DNA from: Deltaproteobacteria bacterium
Lineage (GTDB): Bacteria > CG03 > SLGR01 > JBDRKX01
Reading direction: 5' to 3'
Assembly (NCBI GenBank): GCA_048634875.1
Contig: JAIVZN010000002.1
Location: forward strand, 1 to 57,407
DNA length: 57,407 nucleotides
In this document: one piece after another, positions 1 to 50,662 of the stretch
Numbering within the stretch: position 1 is the stretch's first letter
How the letters are laid out: each line of letters begins with the position of its first letter
Made by a program: the position numbers and the translations under genes
Notes under the pieces: model-generated
What the model saw: the letters and a program-made list of their open reading frames with translations, nothing else
Databases searched by the model: none
What the model was told of the DNA's origin: nothing

Positions 1-323
1 GAAGAATGTTTCTTGATAACATCTTCCTTTGTTACATTATGCCAAATTTGAAAAATTTTTTTATTTTGTTCTACGCCTTGATGTAGAAATGTATCCATTT
101 CAAACGATGTCCAATTTTTATTTAAATATTCCGGTGAAATAATTAATATTCCCGATTTAGATTTATTTATGCCTTCTTCAATTGAATTTAATAATTTCTC
201 TCCCACTTTTAAACTTAACGGGGCATACCAGATATTGAAACCGTGGCTTTTAATAGCACCAGCAATTTCAGTTGCCAAAGCGTTATTTTCTTCAGCATAA
301 GATATAAATGTTTCATATTCCAT
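1..323 (-). CDS. TIR-domain protein; the 3' end runs off the left edge (first 107 codons visible)
   Basis: Hand translation of the reverse strand from the ATG at 323-321 gives MEYETFISYAEENNALATEIAGAIKSHGFNIWYAPLSLKVGEKLLNSIEEGINKSKSGILIISPEYLNKNWTSFEMDTFLHQGVEQNKKIFQIWHNVTKEDVIKKHS. It shows the FISYA start, a G..IW block, the IISPEYL..W..xE (candidate catalytic Glu) block and the KIFQIW block typical of bacterial TIR (TIR_2-like) domains. It is absent from the ORF track because no stop lies inside the window. Confidence 0.75.
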   Translation of the reverse strand, partial: MEYETFISYAEENNALATEIAGAIKSHGFNIWYAPLSLKVGEKLLNSIEEGINKSKSGILIISPEYLNKNWTSFEMDTFLHQGVEQNKKIFQIWHNVTKEDVIKKHS

Positions 324-379
324 TATTTATTTTTTTCTTATAACATTAATTATTAAGTAGATGATGTTATTTTGGAAAA

Positions 380-2072: not shown

Positions 2073-2411
2073 TCAGCTTTCTCTTTTTTTGACTACTTTA
2101 ATTTTTAAATTTTTTTTCGCTTTATCAAAAATGATTAAATTATTCCCTTCAATCTTTACAGTTCCTATTATTTGAGTGACATATTGACTACTTTTGACTT
2201 TCTTTTCTCTTTCTGCTATACAGATTTCCGGAGAATCCCCAAGATAAAGAACCCCAAATTCCCCCTGAGTATTATATCTTCCACCATAAGCATAACTTCC
2301 CTTAGTGCTTAACATCTCATTTGAATGTTTTTTGGAAACCAGGCGATAAAACTCTCCGATAATATTCTTAGCTGCAATCTTATTTAATTTGTCTTTTAAA
2401 GAACCAGACAC
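2073..2411 (-). CDS. RES-domain toxin-like protein, apparently C-terminally truncated
   Basis: The GGRYNTQGEFGVLYLGDSPEICIAE block matches the RES-domain GGRWN..G..hYh..s...a.aE signature (Arg and Glu). The protein is only 112 aa, and the downstream Ser-containing part of RES is not visible. It lies directly downstream of an Xre/DUF2384-type antitoxin gene. Confidence 0.6.
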   Translation of the reverse strand: MSGSLKDKLNKIAAKNIIGEFYRLVSKKHSNEMLSTKGSYAYGGRYNTQGEFGVLYLGDSPEICIAEREKKVKSSQYVTQIIGTVKIEGNNLIIFDKAKKNLKIKVVKKRES

Positions 2412-2416
2412 TTAAT

Positions 2417-2802
2417 TTAAGTAGGAATTCCCCATTCAATTTTTCCCAATAATCTTTCCACTTCCATAACTCCGGCAAATCCCTGTTCCATTGTTTCTAT
2501 TGGTGTTTTATTCCCCAGCGCTTCGTTGGGAGTTCTTAACCACTCTCCCTTTTTTTCTTCTTTTATAACTCCATTCATTTTTTCGAAGATTCGATGTAAT
2601 TCTCTAATTCTTCTTAAATCCAGTTCGTGAGGAATATTCTCTCCGTTTTCCCATCTAGCAATAGTTCTTGTACTAACACCAATTATATGGGCCATCTTTT
2701 CCTGGGAACAATTAAGTTCTTCTCTTAAATAATGAGTCTCTTTATCAATTCTTTTAATTGATAATGAGTCTCTTTATCAATTCTTTTAATTGCTACAGTC
2801 AT
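2417..2802 (-). pseudogene. Xre-family / DUF2384-type antitoxin gene disrupted by a 32-bp tandem duplication
   Basis: An ATG at 2802 has a GGAGG 8 nt upstream and reads MTVAIKRIDKETHY, then shifts frame inside the duplicated unit and stops at 2725-2727. The track ORF 2417..2695 (MAHIIGVSTRTIARWENG...) is the remainder in another frame. Removing one 32-bp copy restores a 117-aa ORF with a complete HTH (LREELNCSQEKMAHIIGVSTRTIARWENG). Confidence 0.7.
2729..2792. repeat. Perfect 32-bp tandem duplication (2 copies)
   Basis: The unit ataatgagtctctttatcaattcttttaattg occurs at 2729-2760 and again at 2761-2792. Confidence 0.9.
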
Positions 2803-4107: not shown

Positions 4108-4170
4108 TCTAAGTTATAAGTTACGGATTACAAATTATAAGTTAACTTATAACCTATAATTTATAACTTA
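4108..4170. repeat. Heptad-built imperfect hairpin, TTATAAG family (copy 1)
   Basis: The sequence is taagttataagttacggattacaaattataagtt|aacttataacctataatttataactta, with a perfect 9+9 palindrome at its centre (4135-4152). It fills the spacer between the giant gene and porV. Confidence 0.7.
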
Positions 4171-9009: not shown

Positions 9010-9086
9010 AATTATCCTCCACTATTAGAACACAAGTCACAAGACTTTATTCTGAATTTTGCCCTGTCATTTTTCAATTTTTAATT

Positions 9087-9130
9087 CCTAATCTCCTAAT
9101 CTCCCAGTCTCCTAATCTCACAATCTCCCA
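9087..9130. repeat. Octamer tandem array (CCTAATCT-like, about 5.5 units)
   Basis: The array reads cctaatct cctaatct cccagtct cctaatct cacaatct ccca. On the coding (minus) strand it reads as RGGAGATT units (SD-like GGAG repeated). Confidence 0.7.
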
Positions 9131-9141
9131 TTTTACATTTT

Positions 9142-19482: not shown

Positions 19483-19514
19483 TTCATTCCTCCATTCGGT
19501 CGTTCACTCCTCTT

Positions 19515-19590
19515 TTAAGGAATGTGGTATGAGGCATGAGGGAGTAGGGAATATCATCTTCCATCTTTCCTTACCTCCTATGTTCCTTAA
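19515..19590. repeat. Heptad-built hairpin, GGAATGWG family (copy 1)
   Basis: The left arm ttaaggaatgtggtatgaggcatgagggagtagggaata is followed by a pyrimidine-rich partner, tcatcttccatctttccttacctcctatgttccttaa. It overlaps the 3' end of the GT4 gene. Confidence 0.6.
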
Positions 19591-24933: not shown

Positions 24934-24948
24934 TTTCCCTCCTTCTTT

Positions 24949-25058
24949 TTAAGGAATGTGGGAGTAAGGATGAGAGATAAGGGAAGAAAATTTTCTTTCT
25001 TCAGCGAAGCGTTCTTCCATCTTCTATCTTCCCTCTTTCCTCTTTCCTCATTCCTCAC
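24949..25058. repeat. Heptad-built hairpin, GGAATGWG family (copy 2)
   Basis: The left arm is ttaaggaatgtgggagtaaggatgagagataagggaagaaaa. The right arm is ttcttccatcttctatcttccctctttcctctttcctcattcctcac. It sits in the recA/pgpA spacer. Confidence 0.65.
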
Positions 25059-25059
25059 T

Positions 25060-25503
25060 TTATAGTAAGTGTATTATACGCAGTATGAGGTTTGTTAAAA
25101 CTCCTGCGTACAGGTCATCTAACATTATTCCGAGACCGCCGGCAACTATCTGCAGTTTATTCATAGGATAAATTTTCATAATATCAAGAATCCTAAATAT
25201 TATAAACCCTATAATTATAAGACCGATAGATTTTGGTAAAAAAGCCATTGCTACAAAAAATCCCACCATTTCATCTACCACAATTTGAGGAGGGTCTATT
25301 GTCTCCATCATCTCTTCAGTTCTTCCAGCAGTTATCACTCCAATAAAAGTCAGAATTATCAGCATTGTCCAGTAAAATGTAGGTGATACAGGAAGCAGTA
25401 CATAATATATTACTGCAGCAACTATTGTAGCAATTGTACCCGGCGCAGGAAACTTTTCACCTATAAAAAAACCTGTTGCTATAAATCTAATTATCCAGTT
25501 CAT
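25060..25503 (-). CDS. pgpA: Phosphatidylglycerophosphatase A
   Basis: The PGTIATIVA motif, the size and the TM pattern fit the PgpA family. It overlaps pgsA by 4 nt. Confidence 0.8.
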   Translation of the reverse strand: MNWIIRFIATGFFIGEKFPAPGTIATIVAAVIYYVLLPVSPTFYWTMLIILTFIGVITAGRTEEMMETIDPPQIVVDEMVGFFVAMAFLPKSIGLIIIGFIIFRILDIMKIYPMNKLQIVAGGLGIMLDDLYAGVLTNLILRIIHLL

Positions 25504-26685: not shown

Positions 26686-26702
26686 TTGTAAATAAATCCT
26701 AT

Positions 26703-26890
26703 ATTGAGACCTAAATGATGTTTTTTTTGCGACTTGTGACTTTTTAGTGAAACTATACCGTTAAAAAACTAAAACTTGTTTGAGCCCAACTCTTCATGAA
26801 GAGCTGGGCGAGTTTTTTAGTTTTAGGTATAGTCTCATGTGCCAAAGGCAAAAAGTCTCCGGAGCAAAAAAATATATTTTTAGGGCTCAA
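26703..26890 (-). repeat. Long-hairpin intergenic element X, copy 1 (about 188 nt; the module extends to 26686-26938)
   Basis: It is an imperfect palindrome centred on CTCTTCATGAAGAG (26790-26803), with about 94 nt per arm and outer ends attgagacctaaa...tttagggctcaat. It is near-identical to the reverse complement of 49635-49823. The strand given is the direction of flanking transcription. Confidence 0.85.
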
Positions 26891-26932
26891 TTATTTTTAT
26901 CTCCTTTTGTTAGCTGAAAGCCCATGTCCGTT

Positions 26933-27595
26933 TCACTCAAAATCAAGGATATTCACATCATTGCCTGCCTTAAAACTAAAACAATCATCATTTAAAACAG
27001 GATTTAAGATATAATTTGTAAATATAGTTACTGATTTAAAATTAGGCGCATATACTACTGTCTCCTCTGGAAGATATGTATCAGTATTAAAAAATATAAT
27101 CATATTATCAAAATTATATTCAGTAGAAAGAATGGGGACGGTTCTGATACTTTTCCCATTCTTTCTATTTTCATTTACACTGAGTTTGAAATTTTTTTTC
27201 AAAAGTCCGAATGAGTCTGATGATAGAATCACTGAAGTCGTTACGCCAAGCATATCAATAAAATTATTACTTTTTTGCTTTGTTGCCTGTTTAATCTCAG
27301 GTATGTATGTAAATAAGTATCCATCTGAAAAATAAATTTCCTGTATATGAGGTTTTTGATATATAATTTTAAGATTATCCGGTCTTTTAAAAAAAACCTC
27401 GGCTTTGATAGTTTGCGTACTATCAGCAATAAAAGTATTTTGCTGGAAAGAAAATGAAATTGTTCTCACTTTGCTCATTCTCTCAGTTATCTGCTTAGAT
27501 AACTCCTCTACACTATTACACAGCGCAACCTGCACAATGCAGGATATCAACATAAAATATAAAATATGAATCTTTATCTGTTTAACATTCCTCAT
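26933..27595 (-). CDS. LolA-like outer-membrane lipoprotein carrier
   Basis: It has a signal peptide and the LolA-like pattern (F.Q......G....KRPDNLKIIY..P..QEIYFSDGYLFTY.P). The conserved ftsK-lolA adjacency is present. Confidence 0.6.
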   Translation of the reverse strand: MRNVKQIKIHILYFMLISCIVQVALCNSVEELSKQITERMSKVRTISFSFQQNTFIADSTQTIKAEVFFKRPDNLKIIYQKPHIQEIYFSDGYLFTYIPEIKQATKQKSNNFIDMLGVTTSVILSSDSFGLLKKNFKLSVNENRKNGKSIRTVPILSTEYNFDNMIIFFNTDTYLPEETVVYAPNFKSVTIFTNYILNPVLNDDCFSFKAGNDVNILDFE

Positions 27596-29670
27596 GTGCG
27601 TAAATTTCTCAGGTATTCTTCAGACACAAGTACTTCTCTGCCTTTAACACCTCCATCATTGCTTATAATACCGTTAGCTTCCATCTTATCAATGATTCGG
27701 GCTGCGCGGTTATAACCAATACTTAGACGACGCTGTAAAAGCGATGTAGATGCCTTTTTTAATCTTATAACCGTCTCTACTGCTCTCGGGTATATTTCAT
27801 CTTTATAATCAATCTCCGCCTCATTTTTTTTAAATTTATCCTGCAGTTTAAGTCCGGGCACATATCCATAATTTAAATTCTTTAAATACTCAACAACTGC
27901 TTCTACTTCCTTTCTTGAAATGAAACATCCCTGTAATCTTTCAGCTAAAGGAAGTTCAGTTGCAAGATACAGCATATCGCCTTTGCCAAGTAGTTTTTCT
28001 GCGCCATTTGAATCTAATATTGTCCTGGAATCTACTCCGCTTAACACATTAAAAGCAATTCTTGCAGGAAGATTTGCCTTTATAATACCGGTTATTATAT
28101 CTACTGACGGTCTCTGAGTAGCAAGTACAAGGTGTATCCCTACAGCTCTTGCCATCTGCGCAATTCTGACTATTGCAATTTCAACTTTATCTTTAGCTAC
28201 AACCATCAGGTCAGCAAGTTCATCAATAACTACTACAATACGGGGAAGTTTTTTATTACTTTCCACTATTTTATTATATGCATCTATATTTGCTACATTG
28301 TTTTTTGAAAGAATGTCATACCTTTCATCCATTTCAAGTGTAACAGCCTGAAGCATCTTAACCGCCTTATTGCTGTTCGTAATAACTTCTGAATCTAAAT
28401 GAGGTATGCCATTATATACAGGCAGTTCAACTCTTTTTGGATCTATAAACAGAAACCTGACATCTTCGGGTGAGGATTTAAAAAGTATACTGTTAATAAG
28501 TGCGTGTATTGCTATGCTTTTTCCCGACCCGGTTGCGCCGGCAAGTAAAAGATGAGGCATATCGGAAAGATCTACTATTTTAAAATCACCATCCACAGAC
28601 TTCCCGAGGCAGTAAGGTAAATTTGCAGTATTAGATTTAAATTTACCTGATTCAATTAAAGTCTTTATATATACTGTTTCCTGTTGTATTGCAGGAACTT
28701 CAACGCCGACAGCAGCTTTGCCGGGTATGGGAGTAAGAAGCCGGACTGTTTTTGCCTCAAGCGCCATTGCGATATTTGAATCTAAATTTCTGATACGCGA
28801 TAGTTTTATATCCGGGGGGAGCGTAACCTCGTAACGGGTGGTTGCAGGCCCTATCAACACTCCTGATATACGAGCCGAAATACCAAAGTTTGCCAGAACT
28901 TCTATTAATTTTTCACCTCTTTTATTTTCTTCGTCTTTCTTTAACTTTATCCGCGGTTGAACATTTAAGAGGTCTAACGGTATTGCATAATCAACCTTTT
29001 CGGGAATTGTGGCAGGCCGATTATCGGACGCTCGGGCTTTGTTTAAATCAGCCGAGCAAGCTCGGCCACTGTCGGGGCCTGATTTATCAAGCCCTCGTGC
29101 CGGATAATCTTTTATATGTTTTTTTTTGACTTTCTTTTCTACTTTAGTTACAACCCGGGGCTTTTTTATTTTAGATTTCTTCGGTAATTTTATTAAAAAC
29201 AAAACAACTTTTTTAATGGAAACATCTGCCATAAGAATTAATGCTATCAATACAAGCGCAGTAGAAATAATGTATGCCCCAACTTTCCCAAAAGTAATCT
29301 GTATGATAACATCACTGGAAAAATCGCCTAATATTCCACCACTGCCTTCTGAAATTATGTGTAAAAGGATACTCCCGCCAAGAATAATCATTACCAATCC
29401 GGCGCACATTGAGTACTTAAACGGAAACTTTTTGTGGCGGATTTCTGTAATAGCCCACCAGATAAGAACAACTGGTACTATATAACATATATACCCGAGG
29501 AACTCTTTAAGGCTTCCGGAAAGCACTGCTCCTACAGCTCCCACATATTTTTTATCAGGTGTCAATATGAAGGCAAATATCAAAATTATAGAGAACGCCA
29601 GTAAAATGATTCCAGTAATATCCTTTTTTTTTGTAGAATCTTTTATATTTTTCTTACTTTCAACTTTCAA
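27592..29670 (-). CDS. ftsK: DNA translocase FtsK
   Basis: It has N-terminal TM helices, a low-complexity linker, the motor domain (Walker A GATGSGKS; VVVIDELADLM) and a C-terminal gamma wHTH (LLQRRLSIGYNRAARIID). The only available start is a TTG inside a heptamer repeat. Confidence 0.95.
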   Translation of the reverse strand: MKVESKKNIKDSTKKKDITGIILLAFSIILIFAFILTPDKKYVGAVGAVLSGSLKEFLGYICYIVPVVLIWWAITEIRHKKFPFKYSMCAGLVMIILGGSILLHIISEGSGGILGDFSSDVIIQITFGKVGAYIISTALVLIALILMADVSIKKVVLFLIKLPKKSKIKKPRVVTKVEKKVKKKHIKDYPARGLDKSGPDSGRACSADLNKARASDNRPATIPEKVDYAIPLDLLNVQPRIKLKKDEENKRGEKLIEVLANFGISARISGVLIGPATTRYEVTLPPDIKLSRIRNLDSNIAMALEAKTVRLLTPIPGKAAVGVEVPAIQQETVYIKTLIESGKFKSNTANLPYCLGKSVDGDFKIVDLSDMPHLLLAGATGSGKSIAIHALINSILFKSSPEDVRFLFIDPKRVELPVYNGIPHLDSEVITNSNKAVKMLQAVTLEMDERYDILSKNNVANIDAYNKIVESNKKLPRIVVVIDELADLMVVAKDKVEIAIVRIAQMARAVGIHLVLATQRPSVDIITGIIKANLPARIAFNVLSGVDSRTILDSNGAEKLLGKGDMLYLATELPLAERLQGCFISRKEVEAVVEYLKNLNYGYVPGLKLQDKFKKNEAEIDYKDEIYPRAVETVIRLKKASTSLLQRRLSIGYNRAARIIDKMEANGIISNDGGVKGREVLVSEEYLRNLRT
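29021..29104. repeat. Cluster of short GC-rich palindromes embedded in the ftsK linker
   Basis: The palindromes are CCGATTATCGG (within 29021-29047), GCCGAGCAAGCTCGGC (29061-76) and GGGCCTGATTTATCAAGCCC (29085-29104). The last two recur in the glyA/upp spacer (49536-51 and 49863-82). Confidence 0.7.
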
Positions 29671-30321: not shown

Positions 30322-30341
30322 CCGTAAATAAACTCCTTAAT

Positions 30342-30448
30342 ATGAGTCCTAAATGATGCATTTTTTGCGAGCTTTAAGACTTTTTAAGTGAAACTATGCC
30401 GTAAAAAAACTAAAACTTGTTTGAGCGTTAGCGAGTTTTTTAGTTTCA
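30342..30448 (-). repeat. Long-hairpin element X, copy 3 (one arm truncated)
   Basis: The sequence is gagtcctaaatgatgcattttttgcgagctttaagactttttaagtgaaactatgccgtaaaaaaactaaaacttgtttgagcgttagcgagttttttagtttca. The partner arm is cut off at the pnp stop codon. Confidence 0.75.
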
Positions 30449-30452
30449 TCTC

Positions 30453-36164: not shown

Positions 36165-36226
36165 TAGATTTATTGATTGACAATTTGGTAATTGATTTCA
36201 ATCTACAATCGTCAATCTACAATCTA
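36165..36226. repeat. Heptad-built hairpin (CAATCTA type)
   Basis: The sequence is tagatttattgattgacaatttggtaattga|tttcaatctacaatcgtcaatctacaatcta. It overlaps the nrnA stop codon. Confidence 0.55.
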
Positions 36227-37245
36227 TCTAATTCCTTCTCCACAGCATCCAAGACTTTTCTTTTAACTTCTTTAAATTCACCTTTTATCAAACATCCTTC
36301 TGCATTGTGGTGTCCCCCTCCGCCAAAATGATTTGCTATCTTATTAACATTTACACCACCTTTAGAACGAAACGAAACTTTTATACCATCTAAGCCGGGT
36401 ATCTTTCTAAACAATATCCCAACTTCCACTCCCTTTATATTACGCGCAAAATTTATAACACCCTCTAAATCTTCAATAGAGGCACCCGTAGTTTGAAACA
36501 TTTCAGGGGTCACTGTTATATATCCAACTCTTTTAGAATTAGTCAGGGTTAAAGATTCTATTGCTTTTGATACAAGCCTGAGACCCTCTATTTCACTGTT
36601 TCTGTATATAAGGGTAGATACTTTTTGAGGAGAAATAAATTTATCAATCAGCCCGGCAGCAATTAAGTGAGATTGAGGGGTTGTATTATCTTCCTGAAAT
36701 TTATCTGTGTCAGTTACAATTCCAATATATATACAGAGAGCAAGGTCATAATCAAACTCAATATTCATCTGAGACGCTATATTAAAAATTAACTCGCAGA
36801 CAGAAGAACTCTTCGGTTTAACATAATTAATATCGCCAAACTCATGATTTAACTGGTGATGGTCAATGTTTATAATTGTCCGAGCCGATGTCAACAGACC
36901 CGATAGCCCTTCAATTCTCTTTTTGTCAGAACAATCAAGTACAAACCCGATATCTTTAGTAGGACAGGCATCTTGCCTGTCAGTAGTATCACCTCCAAAT
37001 GCAGTTTTAATCTTATCTATTCCTTTCAGGAAACTATAAACTCTCGGCAAAGCACTCGGAGAAATAACTTCTACATCTAAACCGAGTTTCCTTAAGATAT
37101 GATACATTGCAAGCGCCCCTCCAATTGCATCGCCATCAGGCCGCGGATGCATTGTAACAAAAGCGCTCTTTGAATTTTCTATCACATTTATAATTTTTGA
37201 GATAATATTTCTATCTTCAACCGGTATATCTAAATTAAGTTTCAT
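36217..37245 (-). CDS. nrnA: DHH/DHHA1 phosphoesterase, NrnA-like oligoribonuclease / pAp phosphatase
   Basis: It carries the HPRPDGDAIGG, DHH (INIDHHQ) and GGGGHHNA motifs. Confidence 0.8.
   Translation of the reverse strand: MKLNLDIPVEDRNIISKIINVIENSKSAFVTMHPRPDGDAIGGALAMYHILRKLGLDVEVISPSALPRVYSFLKGIDKIKTAFGGDTTDRQDACPTKDIGFVLDCSDKKRIEGLSGLLTSARTIINIDHHQLNHEFGDINYVKPKSSSVCELIFNIASQMNIEFDYDLALCIYIGIVTDTDKFQEDNTTPQSHLIAAGLIDKFISPQKVSTLIYRNSEIEGLRLVSKAIESLTLTNSKRVGYITVTPEMFQTTGASIEDLEGVINFARNIKGVEVGILFRKIPGLDGIKVSFRSKGGVNVNKIANHFGGGGHHNAEGCLIKGEFKEVKRKVLDAVEKELDRL
36958..36986. repeat. 19-bp GC-rich palindrome with 5-bp direct flanks, in-frame inside nrnA
   Basis: The sequence is agtag|gacaggcatcttgcctgtc|agtag. 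The same 19-mer is intergenic at 47176-47194. The palindrome plus one flank is 24 nt and encodes DRQDACPT. Confidence 0.75.
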
Positions 37246-37902: not shown

Positions 37903-37911
37903 CCGTTTACT

Positions 37912-37992
37912 TTAAGGAATGTGAGACTATGAATGATGGATGAAGGAAGAAAATTTATTCCCTATTCCCTCATGCCTCATTCCTCATTCCTG
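37912..37992. repeat. Heptad-built hairpin, GGAATGWG family (copy 3)
   Basis: The sequence is ttaaggaatgtgagactatgaatgatggatgaaggaagaaaat|ttattccctattccctcatgcctcattcctcattcctg, located in the infB/DUF503 spacer. Confidence 0.65.
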
Positions 37993-37995
37993 TTT

Positions 37996-46000: not shown

Positions 46001-47152
46001 ATGAAATTCCCATCCGGCTTTTGCATAACCAGTATAAAAGGAGAAAAAAATGATTTTGGCTTGATATTTGCCCCGCTTGGTATGAAAACAGCAGGTATGT
46101 TTACAACAAATTCCTGCCCTGCACATCCAGTTAAATTTTCAAGAGATACAATAAAAAACCCCGTGCATAAAGCAATACTCGTTAATAAGGGGAGTGCAAA
46201 TTCTGCTACAGGCAATGAAGGAAAAAAGCATTTAAAAAATTTAGTAGCAGAAGTTTGCAACGGCCTTGTAATTGGCAAGGAGGAGGTACTTGTTGCATCA
46301 ACAGGTGTAATAGGAAAACAACTGCAATATACAGATTCAGAAATAAACAGGTTAATTGAAAAAAAAGAAAGAGTGGAACCTGATAATTTTGCCCAGGCAA
46401 TTATGACTACGGACACCTGCAAAAAGGTTGTAACAGAAAGTTTTGAAATAGATGGAAAAGAAGTAATAATAACCGGGATTGCAAAAGGTTCCGGAATGAT
46501 TGCGCCTGATTTAGCAACTATGCTTGCATTTATCCTTACAGATGTAAGAATGGAAAAAGAAGCGCTTCAAGCTGCGCTTAAAAGGGCTGCTGATATCAGT
46601 TTTAACTGTTTGAACATTGACGGCGAGACAAGTACAAATGACAGCGTATTCCTTGCAGCGTCAGGAACTGCTCGGAACCGTTCTTTTGGTCAACAAGGAG
46701 AACATTTTGACATATTTTATAAGAGCCTGAAAAAGGTTTGTATTTTGCTTGTAGAGAAACTTACCGGAGATGGCGAAGGAGCAACAAAATTTATAAAAAT
46801 TAACATACGGGGCGCAGTCAATGAAGATAGCGCAAAGAAAGCTGCAAATGCAATAGCAGTTTCACCTCTATGCAAGATTGCTTTTTACGGCGCATCTCCA
46901 AACTGGGGAAGAATAATCTCAGCGCTTGGCGCTGCCCGGATAAAGTTTAGAGTGGAAAATTTCAGCCTGTATATTAACAGCATACCATGGGTAAAAAAAG
47001 GTATACCTCAAAATACAGAACCTGTAAAAAAGGCTTTAGAAAACAGGCAGTATGAAATTAACATACATTTAAATTCAGGAAATAAAAAAGCCTCTTTATA
47101 TACCTGTGATTTCAGCCCGGAGTATGTAAAAATTAACGCGCATTATTCGTAG
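46001..47152 (+). CDS. argJ: Bifunctional ornithine acetyltransferase / N-acetylglutamate synthase
   Basis: The autoprocessing site is PDLATMLAFILTD, with ArgJ blocks throughout. Confidence 0.93.
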   Translation: MKFPSGFCITSIKGEKNDFGLIFAPLGMKTAGMFTTNSCPAHPVKFSRDTIKNPVHKAILVNKGSANSATGNEGKKHLKNLVAEVCNGLVIGKEEVLVASTGVIGKQLQYTDSEINRLIEKKERVEPDNFAQAIMTTDTCKKVVTESFEIDGKEVIITGIAKGSGMIAPDLATMLAFILTDVRMEKEALQAALKRAADISFNCLNIDGETSTNDSVFLAASGTARNRSFGQQGEHFDIFYKSLKKVCILLVEKLTGDGEGATKFIKINIRGAVNEDSAKKAANAIAVSPLCKIAFYGASPNWGRIISALGAARIKFRVENFSLYINSIPWVKKGIPQNTEPVKKALENRQYEINIHLNSGNKKASLYTCDFSPEYVKINAHYS

Positions 47153-47194
47153 TGAAACGGACATGGGCTTTGTGTGACAGGCATCTTGCCTGTC
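47153..47194 (+). repeat. Post-stop motif TGAAACGGACATGGGCTT plus the 19-bp palindrome GACAGGCATCTTGCCTGTC
   Basis: The TGAAACGGACATGRGCTT motif recurs at 49593-49612 and, on the minus strand, at 26913-26938. It is always in the sense orientation of the upstream gene; two copies lie at the stop codon and the 49593 copy lies about 60 nt downstream of it. The palindrome (47176-94) recurs inside nrnA. Confidence 0.7.
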
Positions 47195-47198
47195 AGGA

Positions 47199-47275
47199 TT
47201 ATAAGTTATAAGTGATAAGTTATAGGTGAAATTATAAAAAATAACTCATAATTTATAACTCGTAACTCATAATTT
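47199..47275. repeat. Heptad-built hairpin, TTATAAG family (copy 2)
   Basis: The sequence is attataagttataagtgataagttataggtgaa...ataactcataatttataactcgtaactcataa. Confidence 0.7.
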
Positions 47276-47295
47276 TTTATAGTAGCTATTTACAG

Positions 47296-48311: not shown

Positions 48312-49533
48312 TGATAGAGAAATTTTTGAGGCTATACAGAAAGAAAGAGAACGCCAGCAAAATTACTTAGAGATGATAGCATCAGAGAACTACACGTCTC
48401 TGGCTGTACTTCAGGCTATGGGAAGCCATCTGACAGATAAGTACGCAGAGGGGTATCCGGGAAAGAGATATTATGGCGGATGTGAATATGTGGATATTGC
48501 AGAAACATTGGCTATACAGAGAGCTAAAAAAATATTTGGCTCGGAGCATGTAAATGTACAGCCTCACTCAGGAACACAGGCAAATATTGCTTCGTATTTA
48601 GCTCTTCTTAATATAGGGGATACAATAATGGGCATGGACCTGTCCTGCGGCGGGCATTTAACTCACGGGCACCCGTTAAACTTCAGCGGAAAATACTTTA
48701 ATGTTGTTTCTTATGGCGTAAACAAGGACAGTGAAAGAATAGATTATGAAGAAGTAAAAAATATTGCGCGAAAAGAAAAACCAAAATTAATAATATGCGG
48801 GGCTTCTGCTTATTCAAGAACTATTGATTTTAAGAAGTTCAGGGAAATTGCTGATGAAGTTAATGCTTATTTACTTGCAGATATTGCCCATATAGCAGGA
48901 CTTGTGGCAAAAGGGTTACACATGGATCCTGTCCCCTACTCGGACATTGTAACTACAACAACCCATAAGACTTTAAGAGGGCCCAGAGGCGGTATGATAA
49001 TGTGTAAGGAAAAATACGCTGCCGATATAGATCGTTCTGTTTTCCCGGGTAATCAGGGCGGCCCGTTAATGCATGTAATCGCAGCTAAAGCTGTGTGTTT
49101 TAAAGAGGTATTAAGCGATAATTTTACAGATTATATAAAAAGAGTTGTTGAAAACTGCAAAGTTCTTGCAGAGGAATTAAAAAATAACAGTATCAAATTG
49201 GTAACAGGAGGAACAGATAATCATCTTATTTTAATTGATTTAAGACCCTTAAATATTACCGGAAAGGATGCTGAAAAACTGATGCAGGAAGCAGGGATTG
49301 TTGCAAATAAGAACACAATACCTTATGATCCCGAGAAACCGTTTATTGCATCCGGCTTGAGATTAGGCACTCCAATATTAACAACACGGGGAATGGGTGT
49401 AGGGGAGATAAAAAAAATTGCAGAATTAATTACTGATGTGCTAAAAAAACAGGACGGTAACACGGTTTCCTCTGTCAGAAAAGAAGTATTAAAATTGTGT
49501 AAAAAGTTTCCACTTAATCAGTTGAAAATGTAG
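48295..49533 (+). CDS. glyA: Serine hydroxymethyltransferase
   Basis: It carries LIASENYTS, the PLP Lys in [14 protein letters not shown], and canonical SHMT blocks. Confidence 0.97.
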
Positions 49534-49634
49534 TGGCCGAGCTTGCTCGGCGTGGTAGGAGATTAAGAGATTGGGGTGTAAGTGATGAAGAATGAAACGG
49601 ACATGAGCTTCTCTCGCAAAAGCGGATGAAAATA

Positions 49635-49823
49635 ATTGAGCCCTAAAAATGTATTTTGTTGCTCCAGAGACTTTTTGCCTTTGGCACATGAAACTATGCC
49701 TAAAACTAAAAAACTCCCCAGCCCCTGCACGCAGGAGCTGGGTCAAACAAGTTTTAGTTTTTTAACGCCATAGTTTCATTAAAAAATCACAAGTCGCAAA
49801 AAATGCATCATTTAGGTCTCAAT
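49635..49823 (+). repeat. Long-hairpin element X, copy 2 (inverted relative to copy 1; the module extends to 49593-49905)
   Basis: The sequence is attgagccctaaaaatgtattttgttgctccagagactttttgcctttggcacatgaaactatgcctaaaactaaaaaactcccc...gggtcaaacaagttttagttttttaacgccatagtttcattaaaaaatcacaagtcgcaaaaaatgcatcatttaggtctcaat. Confidence 0.85.
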
Positions 49824-49909
49824 TCGACGCCTACGCAAAATTGTAGAGCCTTGATTTTGTAGGGGCTTGATTTATCAAGCCCGATAAAGGATTTATTTAC
49901 GAGTGTAAG

Positions 49910-50545
49910 ATGAATAAAGTAAATATAGTTAAACATCCGCTGATACAGGATAAGCTGACAAGACTGAGAGATGTCAATACAAAAAGCAGGGATTTCAGGG
50001 CATTATTAAAAGAATTATCTGCGCTGATGGCATTTGAAGTAACAAAAGATTTAAATACAACCAAAGTCCATGTGAGGACTCCGCTTGATACGGAAGCAGA
50101 TGGAGTTGTAGTTGAACATTACCAGATTGCTCTTATCCCTATACTTCGCGCAGGTATTGGTATGGTAAATGGAGTTCTTGAAGTTATTCCCCAGGCAAGG
50201 GTTGGACATATTGGCATATACAGGGACCCTGATACACTGAAAGCAGTTAAATATTACCAGAAACTTCCTTTGAATATAGATAGATGTCAGTTAGTAATAC
50301 TGATTGATCCCATGCTTGCAACGGGCCATACCATGGTTGCCACTTTAAATATCTGCAAGGAGATGGGAGCAAAAAATTTAAGAATAATGTGTTTAGTTGC
50401 AGCGCCTGAAGGAATTAATGAAGTTAAAAAATACTATAAAGATATTCCAATATTTACTGCAGCAGTAGATGAGTGTCTGAATGAGCATGGCTATATTCTG
50501 CCGGGTTTAGGTGATGCAGGAGACAGGATATTTGGCACCAAGTAA
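49910..50545 (+). CDS. upp: Uracil phosphoribosyltransferase
   Basis: It carries the PRPP-binding site LIDPMLATGHT and the C-terminal YI.PGLGDAGDR.FGT. Confidence 0.95.
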   Translation: MNKVNIVKHPLIQDKLTRLRDVNTKSRDFRALLKELSALMAFEVTKDLNTTKVHVRTPLDTEADGVVVEHYQIALIPILRAGIGMVNGVLEVIPQARVGHIGIYRDPDTLKAVKYYQKLPLNIDRCQLVILIDPMLATGHTMVATLNICKEMGAKNLRIMCLVAAPEGINEVKKYYKDIPIFTAAVDECLNEHGYILPGLGDAGDRIFGTK

Positions 50546-50662
50546 GTTATGAGTTACGAGTTATGAATTATAATAAAAGTTATAAGTTACAAATTATAAA
50601 TTATAAGTTAAATACTCATAACTCTTCACCTATAACTTATCACTCATCACTTATAACTTATT
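50543..50662. repeat. Heptad-built hairpin, TTATAAG family (copy 3, inverted relative to copy 2)
   Basis: The sequence is taagttatgagttacgagttatgaattataataaaagttataagttacaaattataaattataagttaaatactcataactcttcacctataacttatcactcatcacttataactta. Its reverse complement shares AAGTTATAAGTGA(TGAGTGA)TAAGTTATAGGTGAA and ATAACTCGTAACTCATAA with copy 2. Confidence 0.7.

Follow-up and report, generated by a model that had tools for sequence, protein, structure and literature searches.

An in-frame palindromic repeat in nrnA of an uncultured Elusimicrobiota lineage, probably a GTAG-tagged repetitive extragenic palindrome

The question raised by this locus is what a 19-nt, GC-rich palindrome (GACAGGCATCTTGCCTGTC, positions 36963-36981) represents within the reading frame of nrnA, a gene for a DHH/DHHA1 phosphoesterase. 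The gene lies on contig JAIVZN010000002.1 of assembly GCA_048634875.1, a metagenome-assembled genome (MAG) of Elusimicrobiota deposited as Deltaproteobacteria bacterium. The whole stretch of DNA that was analyzed (positions 1 to 57,407, 57,407 nt, 35% GC) is called the window below. A first-pass annotation had described the palindrome as a small mobile element inserted in frame with a 5-bp target-site-like duplication, AGTAG. According to the present analysis, the two 19-mers of the window are members of a GTAG-tagged family of repetitive extragenic palindromes (REPs) with a 23-nt unit (GTAG + hairpin), and a probability of about 0.85 was assigned to this explanation as a whole.

The letters had been read correctly in the first-pass annotation. 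The 19-mer in nrnA is identical to an intergenic copy at 47176-47194, it is bounded by AGTAG on both sides (36958-36962 and 36982-36986; ...ctttAGTAG GACAGGCATCTTGCCTGTC AGTAGtatc...), and the translation runs in frame across it (...GGDTT DRQDACPT KDIGF...). The palindrome consists of an 8-bp perfect stem and a 3-nt loop, and the RNA on the nrnA gene strand was folded at -12.5 kcal/mol (z = -4.5). No match to the 19-mer, even within 3 mismatches, was obtained in 100 dinucleotide-preserving shuffles of the window, and a chance origin of two exact copies was therefore rejected.

NrnA orthologues were aligned, and the segment proved to be a lineage-specific insertion that keeps the frame: DRQDACPT was missing from 33/33 aligned orthologues (37-68% identity), and the closest orthologue outside the species cluster, P0002 (68% protein and 74% DNA identity), was without the insert. 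The window protein reads AFGGDTTDRQDACPTKD where others read, for example, SIPSG-KKD, which corresponds to a 9-residue gap in all others; in PDB 5O1U, the best solved relative, an 8-residue gap was found at the same position. No NrnA relatives between 94% and 68% identity were found in the protein database. The exact unit of 24 nt, or 8 codons, claimed in the annotation was retained as far as the frame is concerned, but a length of 27 nt fits the alignment slightly better: removal of 24 nt leaves a loop one residue longer than in most orthologues, and removal of 27 nt (9 aa) fits exactly. The boundaries cannot be read from the sequence because AGTAG/ACT is repeated. An AlphaFold model was built on the orthologue alignment (mean predicted local distance difference test score, pLDDT, 92). 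The sole stretch below 50 was residues 85-92, a coil before strand 97-103, and the insert is predicted to sit in a disordered, low-confidence loop tolerant of extra residues.

The exact 19-mer was scanned for in a collection of one genome per species, and at least 120 genome stretches were matched, with about 4 matches expected by chance in that collection. Among the matches listed, a scope that also holds below for counts out of 153 and 157 copies and for the recurrences of the peptide, the stretches came from Cyanobacteria (40), Verrucomicrobiota (26), Planctomycetota (17), Caldilinea of the Chloroflexota (16, from two MAGs, 15/16 from one), Deltaproteobacteria (15), and others (6). Genomes of cultured isolates (Oscillatoria PCC 10802, Tychonema, and Dolichospermum) carried the 19-mer, as did Nostoc genomes (L013, L041, L087). 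Cyanobacterial small dispersed repeats, hairpins of ~20-30 nt that spread within genomes, were reportedly described by Elhai and colleagues. The copies were oriented by their asymmetric loop, and the head was always on the strand with the loop TCT. Directly 5' of the hairpin, GTAG was found in 78 and GTGG in 50 copies (128/153), and the 3' flank was unconserved. Since GTAG/GTGG precedes the hairpin in these copies elsewhere, the left AGTAG in nrnA is read as the REP head. Many of the 19-mers in other genomes were arranged as inverted doublets 7-10 nt apart or as tandem arrays with a period of 23 or 26.

By the published definition, a REP has a fully paired stem of 7-20 bp closed by a loop of 2-5 nt, and GTAG or GTGG stands 0-2 nt to the 5' side of the hairpin (Quentin et al. 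2018, BMC Genomics 19:475, PMC6006769). In nrnA, GTAG directly adjoins the hairpin (0 nt) and is canonically oriented, and the stem of 8 bp and the loop of 3 nt lie within these ranges. The positions in the window, i.e., 24 nt after argJ, overlapping the glyA stop codon, and in a dimer of two further families, B and C (see below), match those typical of REPs. An assembly or sequencing artefact, e.g., an adapter or a chimeric join, might be suspected for a perfect palindrome whose high GC content contrasts with the AT-rich genome around it and which recurs unchanged in unrelated MAGs, but next to no credence can be given to it: the isolate genomes carry the 19-mer, the GTRG head is present on 128/153 copies, and copies are located in frame in genes. 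In addition, four further contigs, independent assemblies from NCBI, ENA, and Logan whose NrnA falls into the same 90% protein cluster, carry the nrnA insert, and the five contigs differ by independent point mutations.

Two further observations concern copies outside the window. In the Caldilinea MAG DYPX01, tandem arrays of the 19-mer (L043 1172-1346, L108 560-700) have a period of 26 (spacer GTATTTG) or 23 (spacer TCAA), and the GTAG head is retained by the outermost unit only, which suggests local amplification via slippage or duplication and not unit-by-unit insertion. The exact 19-mer was also present in five contigs of the IMG/VR viral collection (L129-L133), twice in three of them; these contigs may be prophages or host-derived fragments.

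Several points weigh against the assignment to REPs. Only two copies each of families A (the 19-mer), B, and C were seen in 57 kb, and classical REPs number hundreds per genome. No empty nrnA allele was found among the metagenome contigs, which were scanned with the pattern TTTGGAGGTGATN{0,6}AAAGATATCGGGTT covering the 24-, 27-, and 30-nt models (zero matches), so the exact insertion boundaries are not fixed. GTAG within 0-3 nt of the hairpin 3' end, as on the right-hand side in nrnA, has a chance of ~1-3%, a rough estimate from base composition. The base of the stem, GACA, has 2 G/C in the first four positions, and the filter of Quentin et al. needs 3; that filter is a search heuristic based on 66 families, most of them proteobacterial, and sets no biochemical requirement (PMC6006769). 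Finally, neither the window nor 1.68 Mb of other loci yielded a gene for a REP-associated tyrosine transposase (RAYT) or another Y1 transposase. The matches to a regular expression for the HUH...Y motif all proved false, namely a GDP-mannose dehydratase (L054) and a kinase (L039). With Pfam, the ten unassigned ORFs (open reading frames) of the window yielded a TIR domain, a tyrosine integrase, a RES/Xre pair, and housekeeping domains, with no Y1_Tnp, and the best hit of E. coli RayT in tblastn against the 1.68 Mb had E = 2. REPtrons, in which the RAYT gene is typically flanked by the REPs, can be lost (PMC3733652). A link of this REP family to a RAYT is suggested by the sequence signature and by the literature.

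The 5-bp target-site duplication was the part of the first-pass annotation that had to be given up. The left GTAG is the REP head, as before 128/153 copies elsewhere. When the flanks of the other copies were compared, 5-bp identity was found in 1/153 and 4-bp identity in 3/153, and in the sole 5-bp case (L011) the repeat is a variant of a neighbouring one that occurs in related cyanobacteria. The AGTAG pair is consequently not a signature of the family. The broader claim of a small mobile palindromic element was kept in so far as the dispersed family is generally viewed as mobile, but without the duplication signature. A miniature inverted-repeat transposable element (MITE) or another element derived from a classical transposon was rejected, as flank identity of a fixed length was lacking (5 bp in 1/153, 4 bp in 3/153, none at the second copy in the window).

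A novel, tiny transposable palindrome that makes a 5-bp AGTAG duplication and prefers or selects in-frame insertion is for these reasons very improbable. The direct AGTAG repeats do flank the nrnA copy exactly and are kept in all sister strains, and the hairpin plus one flank gives 24 nt, i.e., 8 codons. The left repeat, however, belongs to the element, flank identity elsewhere is as rare as stated above, the second copy in the window lacks a duplication, and in the sister strain L126 the unit at that site is exactly GTAG + hairpin between unrelated flanks. The orthologue alignment slightly favours 27 nt over 24, and surviving in-frame copies would be yielded by purifying selection by itself.

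The right-hand AGTAG is most likely pre-existing gene sequence or local microhomology, although as an isolated feature in nrnA it may be more than coincidence. An unlikely but informative possibility is that GTAG...GTAG is an integration footprint of the RAYT type, left when one REP unit (hairpin + A + GTAG, or GTAG + hairpin + A) was inserted beside a GTAG already present in nrnA, with the target chosen via cleavage-site recognition or microhomology. GTAG within 1 nt of the hairpin 3' end is unlikely by chance (~1-3%, the rough estimate above), IS200/IS605 relatives insert beside a specific short target without duplication, and GTAG has been proposed as a guide for the choice of cleavage site (PMC8266576). 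On the other hand, the RAYTs tested in vitro cut at CT or CA dinucleotides, not at GTAG; GTRG at that offset was seen in none of the 153 copies elsewhere except one, which is explained by a neighbouring repeat; and no empty site was found among the metagenome contigs. It is thus doubtful that GTAG-hairpin-A-GTAG in nrnA preserves the footprint of a single REP integration beside a GTAG-like target. If it did, a clean single-unit insertion in a conserved gene, with its ancestral state well defined, would document in nature, as few cases can, the target and the structure of the joint; how REPs are disseminated by RAYTs is still unresolved (PMC8266576). In this same improbable reading, the REP core, 100% identical in at least six phyla including this lineage of 35% GC, would also point to cross-phylum spread of one REP/RAYT specificity.

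The course of events under the REP explanation is as follows. An ancestor of the Elusimicrobiota species cluster gained the repeat in nrnA, in antisense orientation, as a 24- or 27-nt insertion. The frame was kept, and DRQDACPT was added to a disordered loop of the DHH domain that immediately precedes the strand with the DxD metal-binding motif. Based on the literature, a RAYT (TnpA-REP) enzyme of the HUH-Y1 type would bind the folded single-strand hairpin together with GTAG and cut at nearby CT/CA dinucleotides, followed by strand transfer. CT at -7/-6 relative to the hairpin was present in 23/124 non-redundant copies, compared to counts from 3 to 15 for the rest of the upstream positions listed. 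The insertion probably survived because its length is a multiple of three, 5/6 frames of the REP are stop-free, and the loop is tolerant. The insertion is old: every strain sampled from the cluster carries it.

Copies of this REP in frame within other genes are common. Of the 157 copies in other genomes, 36 were located in stop-free frames of at least 200 codons, with a distance of no less than 40 codons to each end, and Pfam was used to confirm real genes for intragenic copies. These included UvrA with two copies (L040), NAD-dependent DNA ligase (LigA, L065), GlnRS, where the REP lies within a 53-residue insertion relative to PDB 5BNZ (L106), alpha-L-fucosidase (L059), RecG (L110), and a Ser/Thr kinase-AAA-GAF-histidine kinase protein (L039). 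The LigA copy was not counted as a clean 8-residue insertion, as no more than 2 extra residues were found at the site in the alignment with E. coli LigA; this copy may overlap a pre-existing loop. The peptide DRQDACPT recurred nine times at eight loci (twice in L040) and is the translation of the reverse strand of the REP (GAC AGG CAA GAT GCC TGT CCT ACN). The other open frames encode GQASCLS, RTGILPV, TGKMPVL, and QARCLSY, and the sixth frame, which carries the TAG of the head, was seen only where the head is mutated (L034). Insertions of this kind are not new, contrary to what the first-pass annotation had implied: in-frame intragenic GTAG REPs were described in 2013 (PMC3733652) and again in 2018 (PMC6006769). 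REPs "entirely located within ORFs" were reported in uvrA, DNA ligase, tRNA synthetases, and truB, among other genes, with the highest number in the verrucomicrobium Opitutus terrae (Di Nocera et al. 2013, PMC3733652).

The age of the nrnA insertion was approached through the sister strains. In a lineage at 96.6% nrnA DNA identity, the stem has changed from GCC to GAC, and in another at 98.6% identity from TGT to TAT. Both changes are nonsynonymous and uncompensated, and the folding energy falls from -12.5 to -5.7 and -6.3 kcal/mol, respectively. A mismatch in the middle of the stem nearly abolishes RAYT cleavage (Corneloup et al. 2021, PMC8266576), and the mutated copies would for this reason be dead substrates. 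Judged by these comparisons, the nrnA insertion reads as an old, decaying relic with no sign of recent mobility.

The same changes bear on the proposal that nrnA has kept the hairpin or the 8-residue peptide through selection for a function, either as an mRNA structure for translation or decay, in the operon context nusA-infB-rbfA-nrnA-truB, or as a loop that alters the enzyme. The hairpin is stable (-12.5 kcal/mol, z = -4.5), transcribed REPs affect mRNA stability (PMC3733652), and the insert is kept in all sampled strains. Nevertheless, with two sister lineages carrying uncompensated, nonsynonymous, stem-breaking changes that halve the folding energy, a loop that is predicted to be disordered, and DRQDACPT occurring in unrelated proteins as merely the translation of the REP, such selection is highly improbable. 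Neither the hairpin nor the peptide is maintained in nrnA, as uncompensated point mutations accumulate across strains.

Within the window, nrnA belongs to a rimP-nusA-infB-rbfA-nrnA-truB-ribF array; the ORF contains DHH and DHHA1 domains, and relatives are named NrnA in Elusimicrobiota MAGs. At codon 316 (about 36298-36300), in the region of the DHHA1 GGGH motif, the window reads GGGGHHNAEGC, and A, S, or G is found in the cluster members P0001, P0121, P0122, and P0123 and in all 33 orthologues; the difference is a strain-private substitution or a sequencing error. The coordinates of the features are listed in Table 1.

Table 1. Candidate REPs, their host genes, and other repeats and features of the window
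Feature	Position	Strand	Sequence characteristics	Location and remarks
REP family A, copy 1	36959-36981	+	GTAG head 36959-36962, hairpin 36963-36981	Antisense within nrnA
Right-hand AGTAG	36982-36986	+	Direct repeat of 36958-36962	Conserved in all sister strains
nrnA (host gene)	36217-37245	-	342 aa, DHH/DHHA1 phosphoesterase	Insert is residues 89-96, loop before strand 97-103
REP family A, copy 2	47172-47194	+	Decayed head GTGT 47172-47175, hairpin 47176-47194	Intergenic
REP family B	49530-49551	+	GTAG head 49530-49533, then tg, hairpin GCCGAGCTTGCTCGGC 49536-49551	TAG of the head is the glyA stop codon
REP family B, copy 2	29051-29069	-	GTGG head overlapping the hairpin	Variable linker of ftsK, in frame; encodes ...SGRACSA...
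REP family C, decayed	29071-29094	+	Head GTCG (GTAG in sister strain L121), hairpin GGGCCTGATTTATCAAGCCC	ftsK linker
REP family C, intact	49859-49882	+	GTAG head, hairpin GGGCTTGATTTATCAAGCCC with 9-bp stem and 2-nt loop	Intergenic, glyA-upp
ftsK (host gene)	27592-29670	-		
~230-nt repeated element	26686-26932	-		Intergenic
~230-nt repeated element	49597-49830	+		Intergenic
~230-nt repeated element, partial	30322-30452			Intergenic
~230-nt repeated element, first ~20 nt	47153-47172			
Degenerate 8-nt periodic arrays	37905-37995, 24940-25060, 47196-47280, 19513-19567, 50544-50611, 4111-4145, 9078-9135			Intergenic
Left end of the window	3-326, 521-1771, 2073-2695		TIR-domain ORF fragment; tyrosine recombinase with N-terminal SAM-like domain; truncated RES toxin beside Xre/MbcA-type antitoxin	

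The second copy of family A is located 24 nt past the argJ stop codon (47150-47152), in the 5' part of a ~230-nt repeated element. Its flanks in the window are GTGT...AGGA, with no duplication. In the sister strain L126 the head is GTAG, and when this strain was compared to two other copies of the ~230-nt element, exactly GTAG + hairpin was found to replace about 6 nt, with unrelated flanks and no duplication. This copy has also decayed across strains: besides the GTGT head, the stem has a C>A change in L127 and the loop a 1-nt deletion in L126.

When the window was searched for GTRG followed by a perfect hairpin within 2 nt, two more GC-rich families, B and C, were obtained. Several types of REPs per genome are typical of REP-bearing genomes. 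The 16-nt core of family B had GTRG 0-2 nt upstream in 58/134 copies on metagenome contigs vs ~2% by chance. The B and C copies in ftsK, which lie in frame, are one base apart with their heads facing each other, which is a 'TT' dimer in the terms of Di Nocera et al., and the ftsK orthologue L254 has a 9-residue gap in the poorly conserved linker. None of the families A, B, and C was found in two more distant Elusimicrobiota loci (32 kb in total).

Other repeats were noted in the window. The ~230-nt intergenic element starts with TGAAACGGACATGRGCTT at or just past stop codons, contains a long internal hairpin (GAAACTATGCC...GGCATAGTTTC), and has no Rfam match; it looks like a MITE or a structured 3' untranslated region (UTR) module. 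The degenerate intergenic arrays with an 8-nt period (e.g., AGGAATGA, TTATAAGT, and TCCTAATC) form both arms of long imperfect hairpins at three sites (~-20 to -38 kcal/mol, z near -3), and no hairpin fold was obtained for the array at 9.1 kb on testing. The arm sequences vary between sites and sister strains, but with the same periodicity throughout. The recombinase and toxin-antitoxin genes at the left end of the window may mark the border of an integrated or defence island.

The repeats were compared to known systems. Searches of the literature with the core of the 19-mer returned unrelated eukaryotic papers only, no match was found in the supplements of Di Nocera et al. (2013), and the whole window had no Rfam matches at gathering thresholds. 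In architecture, the closest parallel is with the GTAG REPs of Di Nocera et al. (2013, BMC Genomics 14:522, PMC3733652), in which GTAG/GTGG stands directly 5' of a perfect hairpin with a 6-9 bp stem and a 2-3 nt loop, as here. Those REPs occur as singletons, head-head or tail-tail dimers, and clusters (here singletons, inverted dimers, and arrays), they sit after ORFs and some donate the TAG stop codon, which the glyA case matches, and there are several families per genome, as in this window; 24 families were distinguished in that work (PMC3733652). Their phylum range (Proteobacteria, Cyanobacteria, Chloroflexi, and PVC, the Planctomycetes-Verrucomicrobia-Chlamydiae group) agrees with that of the 19-mer, and the phyla and host genes listed there include neither Elusimicrobiota nor nrnA (PMC3733652).

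The REPSm (SMAG) repeats of Stenotrophomonas maltophilia, which belong with a group 3 RAYT, are built in the same way, their 23 nt being made up of GTAG, an 8-bp perfect palindrome, and a loop of 3 nt (Corneloup et al. 2021, NAR 49:6982, PMC8266576). They are recognised as a folded single strand, and cleavage depends on the bases of the loop and on a stem without mismatches (PMC8266576). Their stem and loop sequences differ from the 19-mer, and group 3 RAYTs are reported mainly from xanthomonads and pseudomonads (PMC8266576). In the subclass 2.4 tnpA-REP genes, a REP is inserted in a coding gene with the frame kept, in a peripheral variable region, as in nrnA; there, however, it is the RAYT gene that hosts REPs, of the 'long' or 'double-foot' type, whereas here a short REP lies in a housekeeping phosphoesterase (Quentin et al. 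2018, PMC6006769). The inverted doublets of the 19-mer in Caldilinea and cyanobacteria resemble REPINs, the REP doublets of Bertels and Rainey (2011, PLoS Genet, PMC3116915), and the window copies are singletons.

The comparison with Rickettsia palindromic elements (RPEs) made in the first-pass annotation was apt. RPEs are in-frame palindromes in housekeeping genes, tolerated at surface regions, with the tag CGTC as opposed to GTAG here. RPE-1 is about 100-150 bp long; to our knowledge, RPEs have no dedicated transposase and are confined to Rickettsia. Identity with RPEs was rejected, the unit being 23 nt, the tag GTAG, and the host an Elusimicrobiota MAG. RPE-4 and RPE-6 have been placed in a sister superfamily of CGTC-tagged REPs, and RPE-1 was described as a 'longer palindromic insertion' (Di Nocera et al. 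2013, PMC3733652).

The nrnA palindrome is a small repeat inserted in frame, of a known kind, in a new phylum and a new host gene. As a probable member of the GTAG-tagged REPs, it would extend their range to Elusimicrobiota, with one core shared base for base across very distant phyla. Short GC-rich palindromes in genes of AT-rich uncultured lineages can be REPs, and the peptides that they encode are then not protein motifs. The insertion in nrnA itself appears to be a dated, decaying relic and not an active element. Proof that the direct GTAG repeat is a footprint of integration would be relevant to the spread of REPs, a problem not yet solved.

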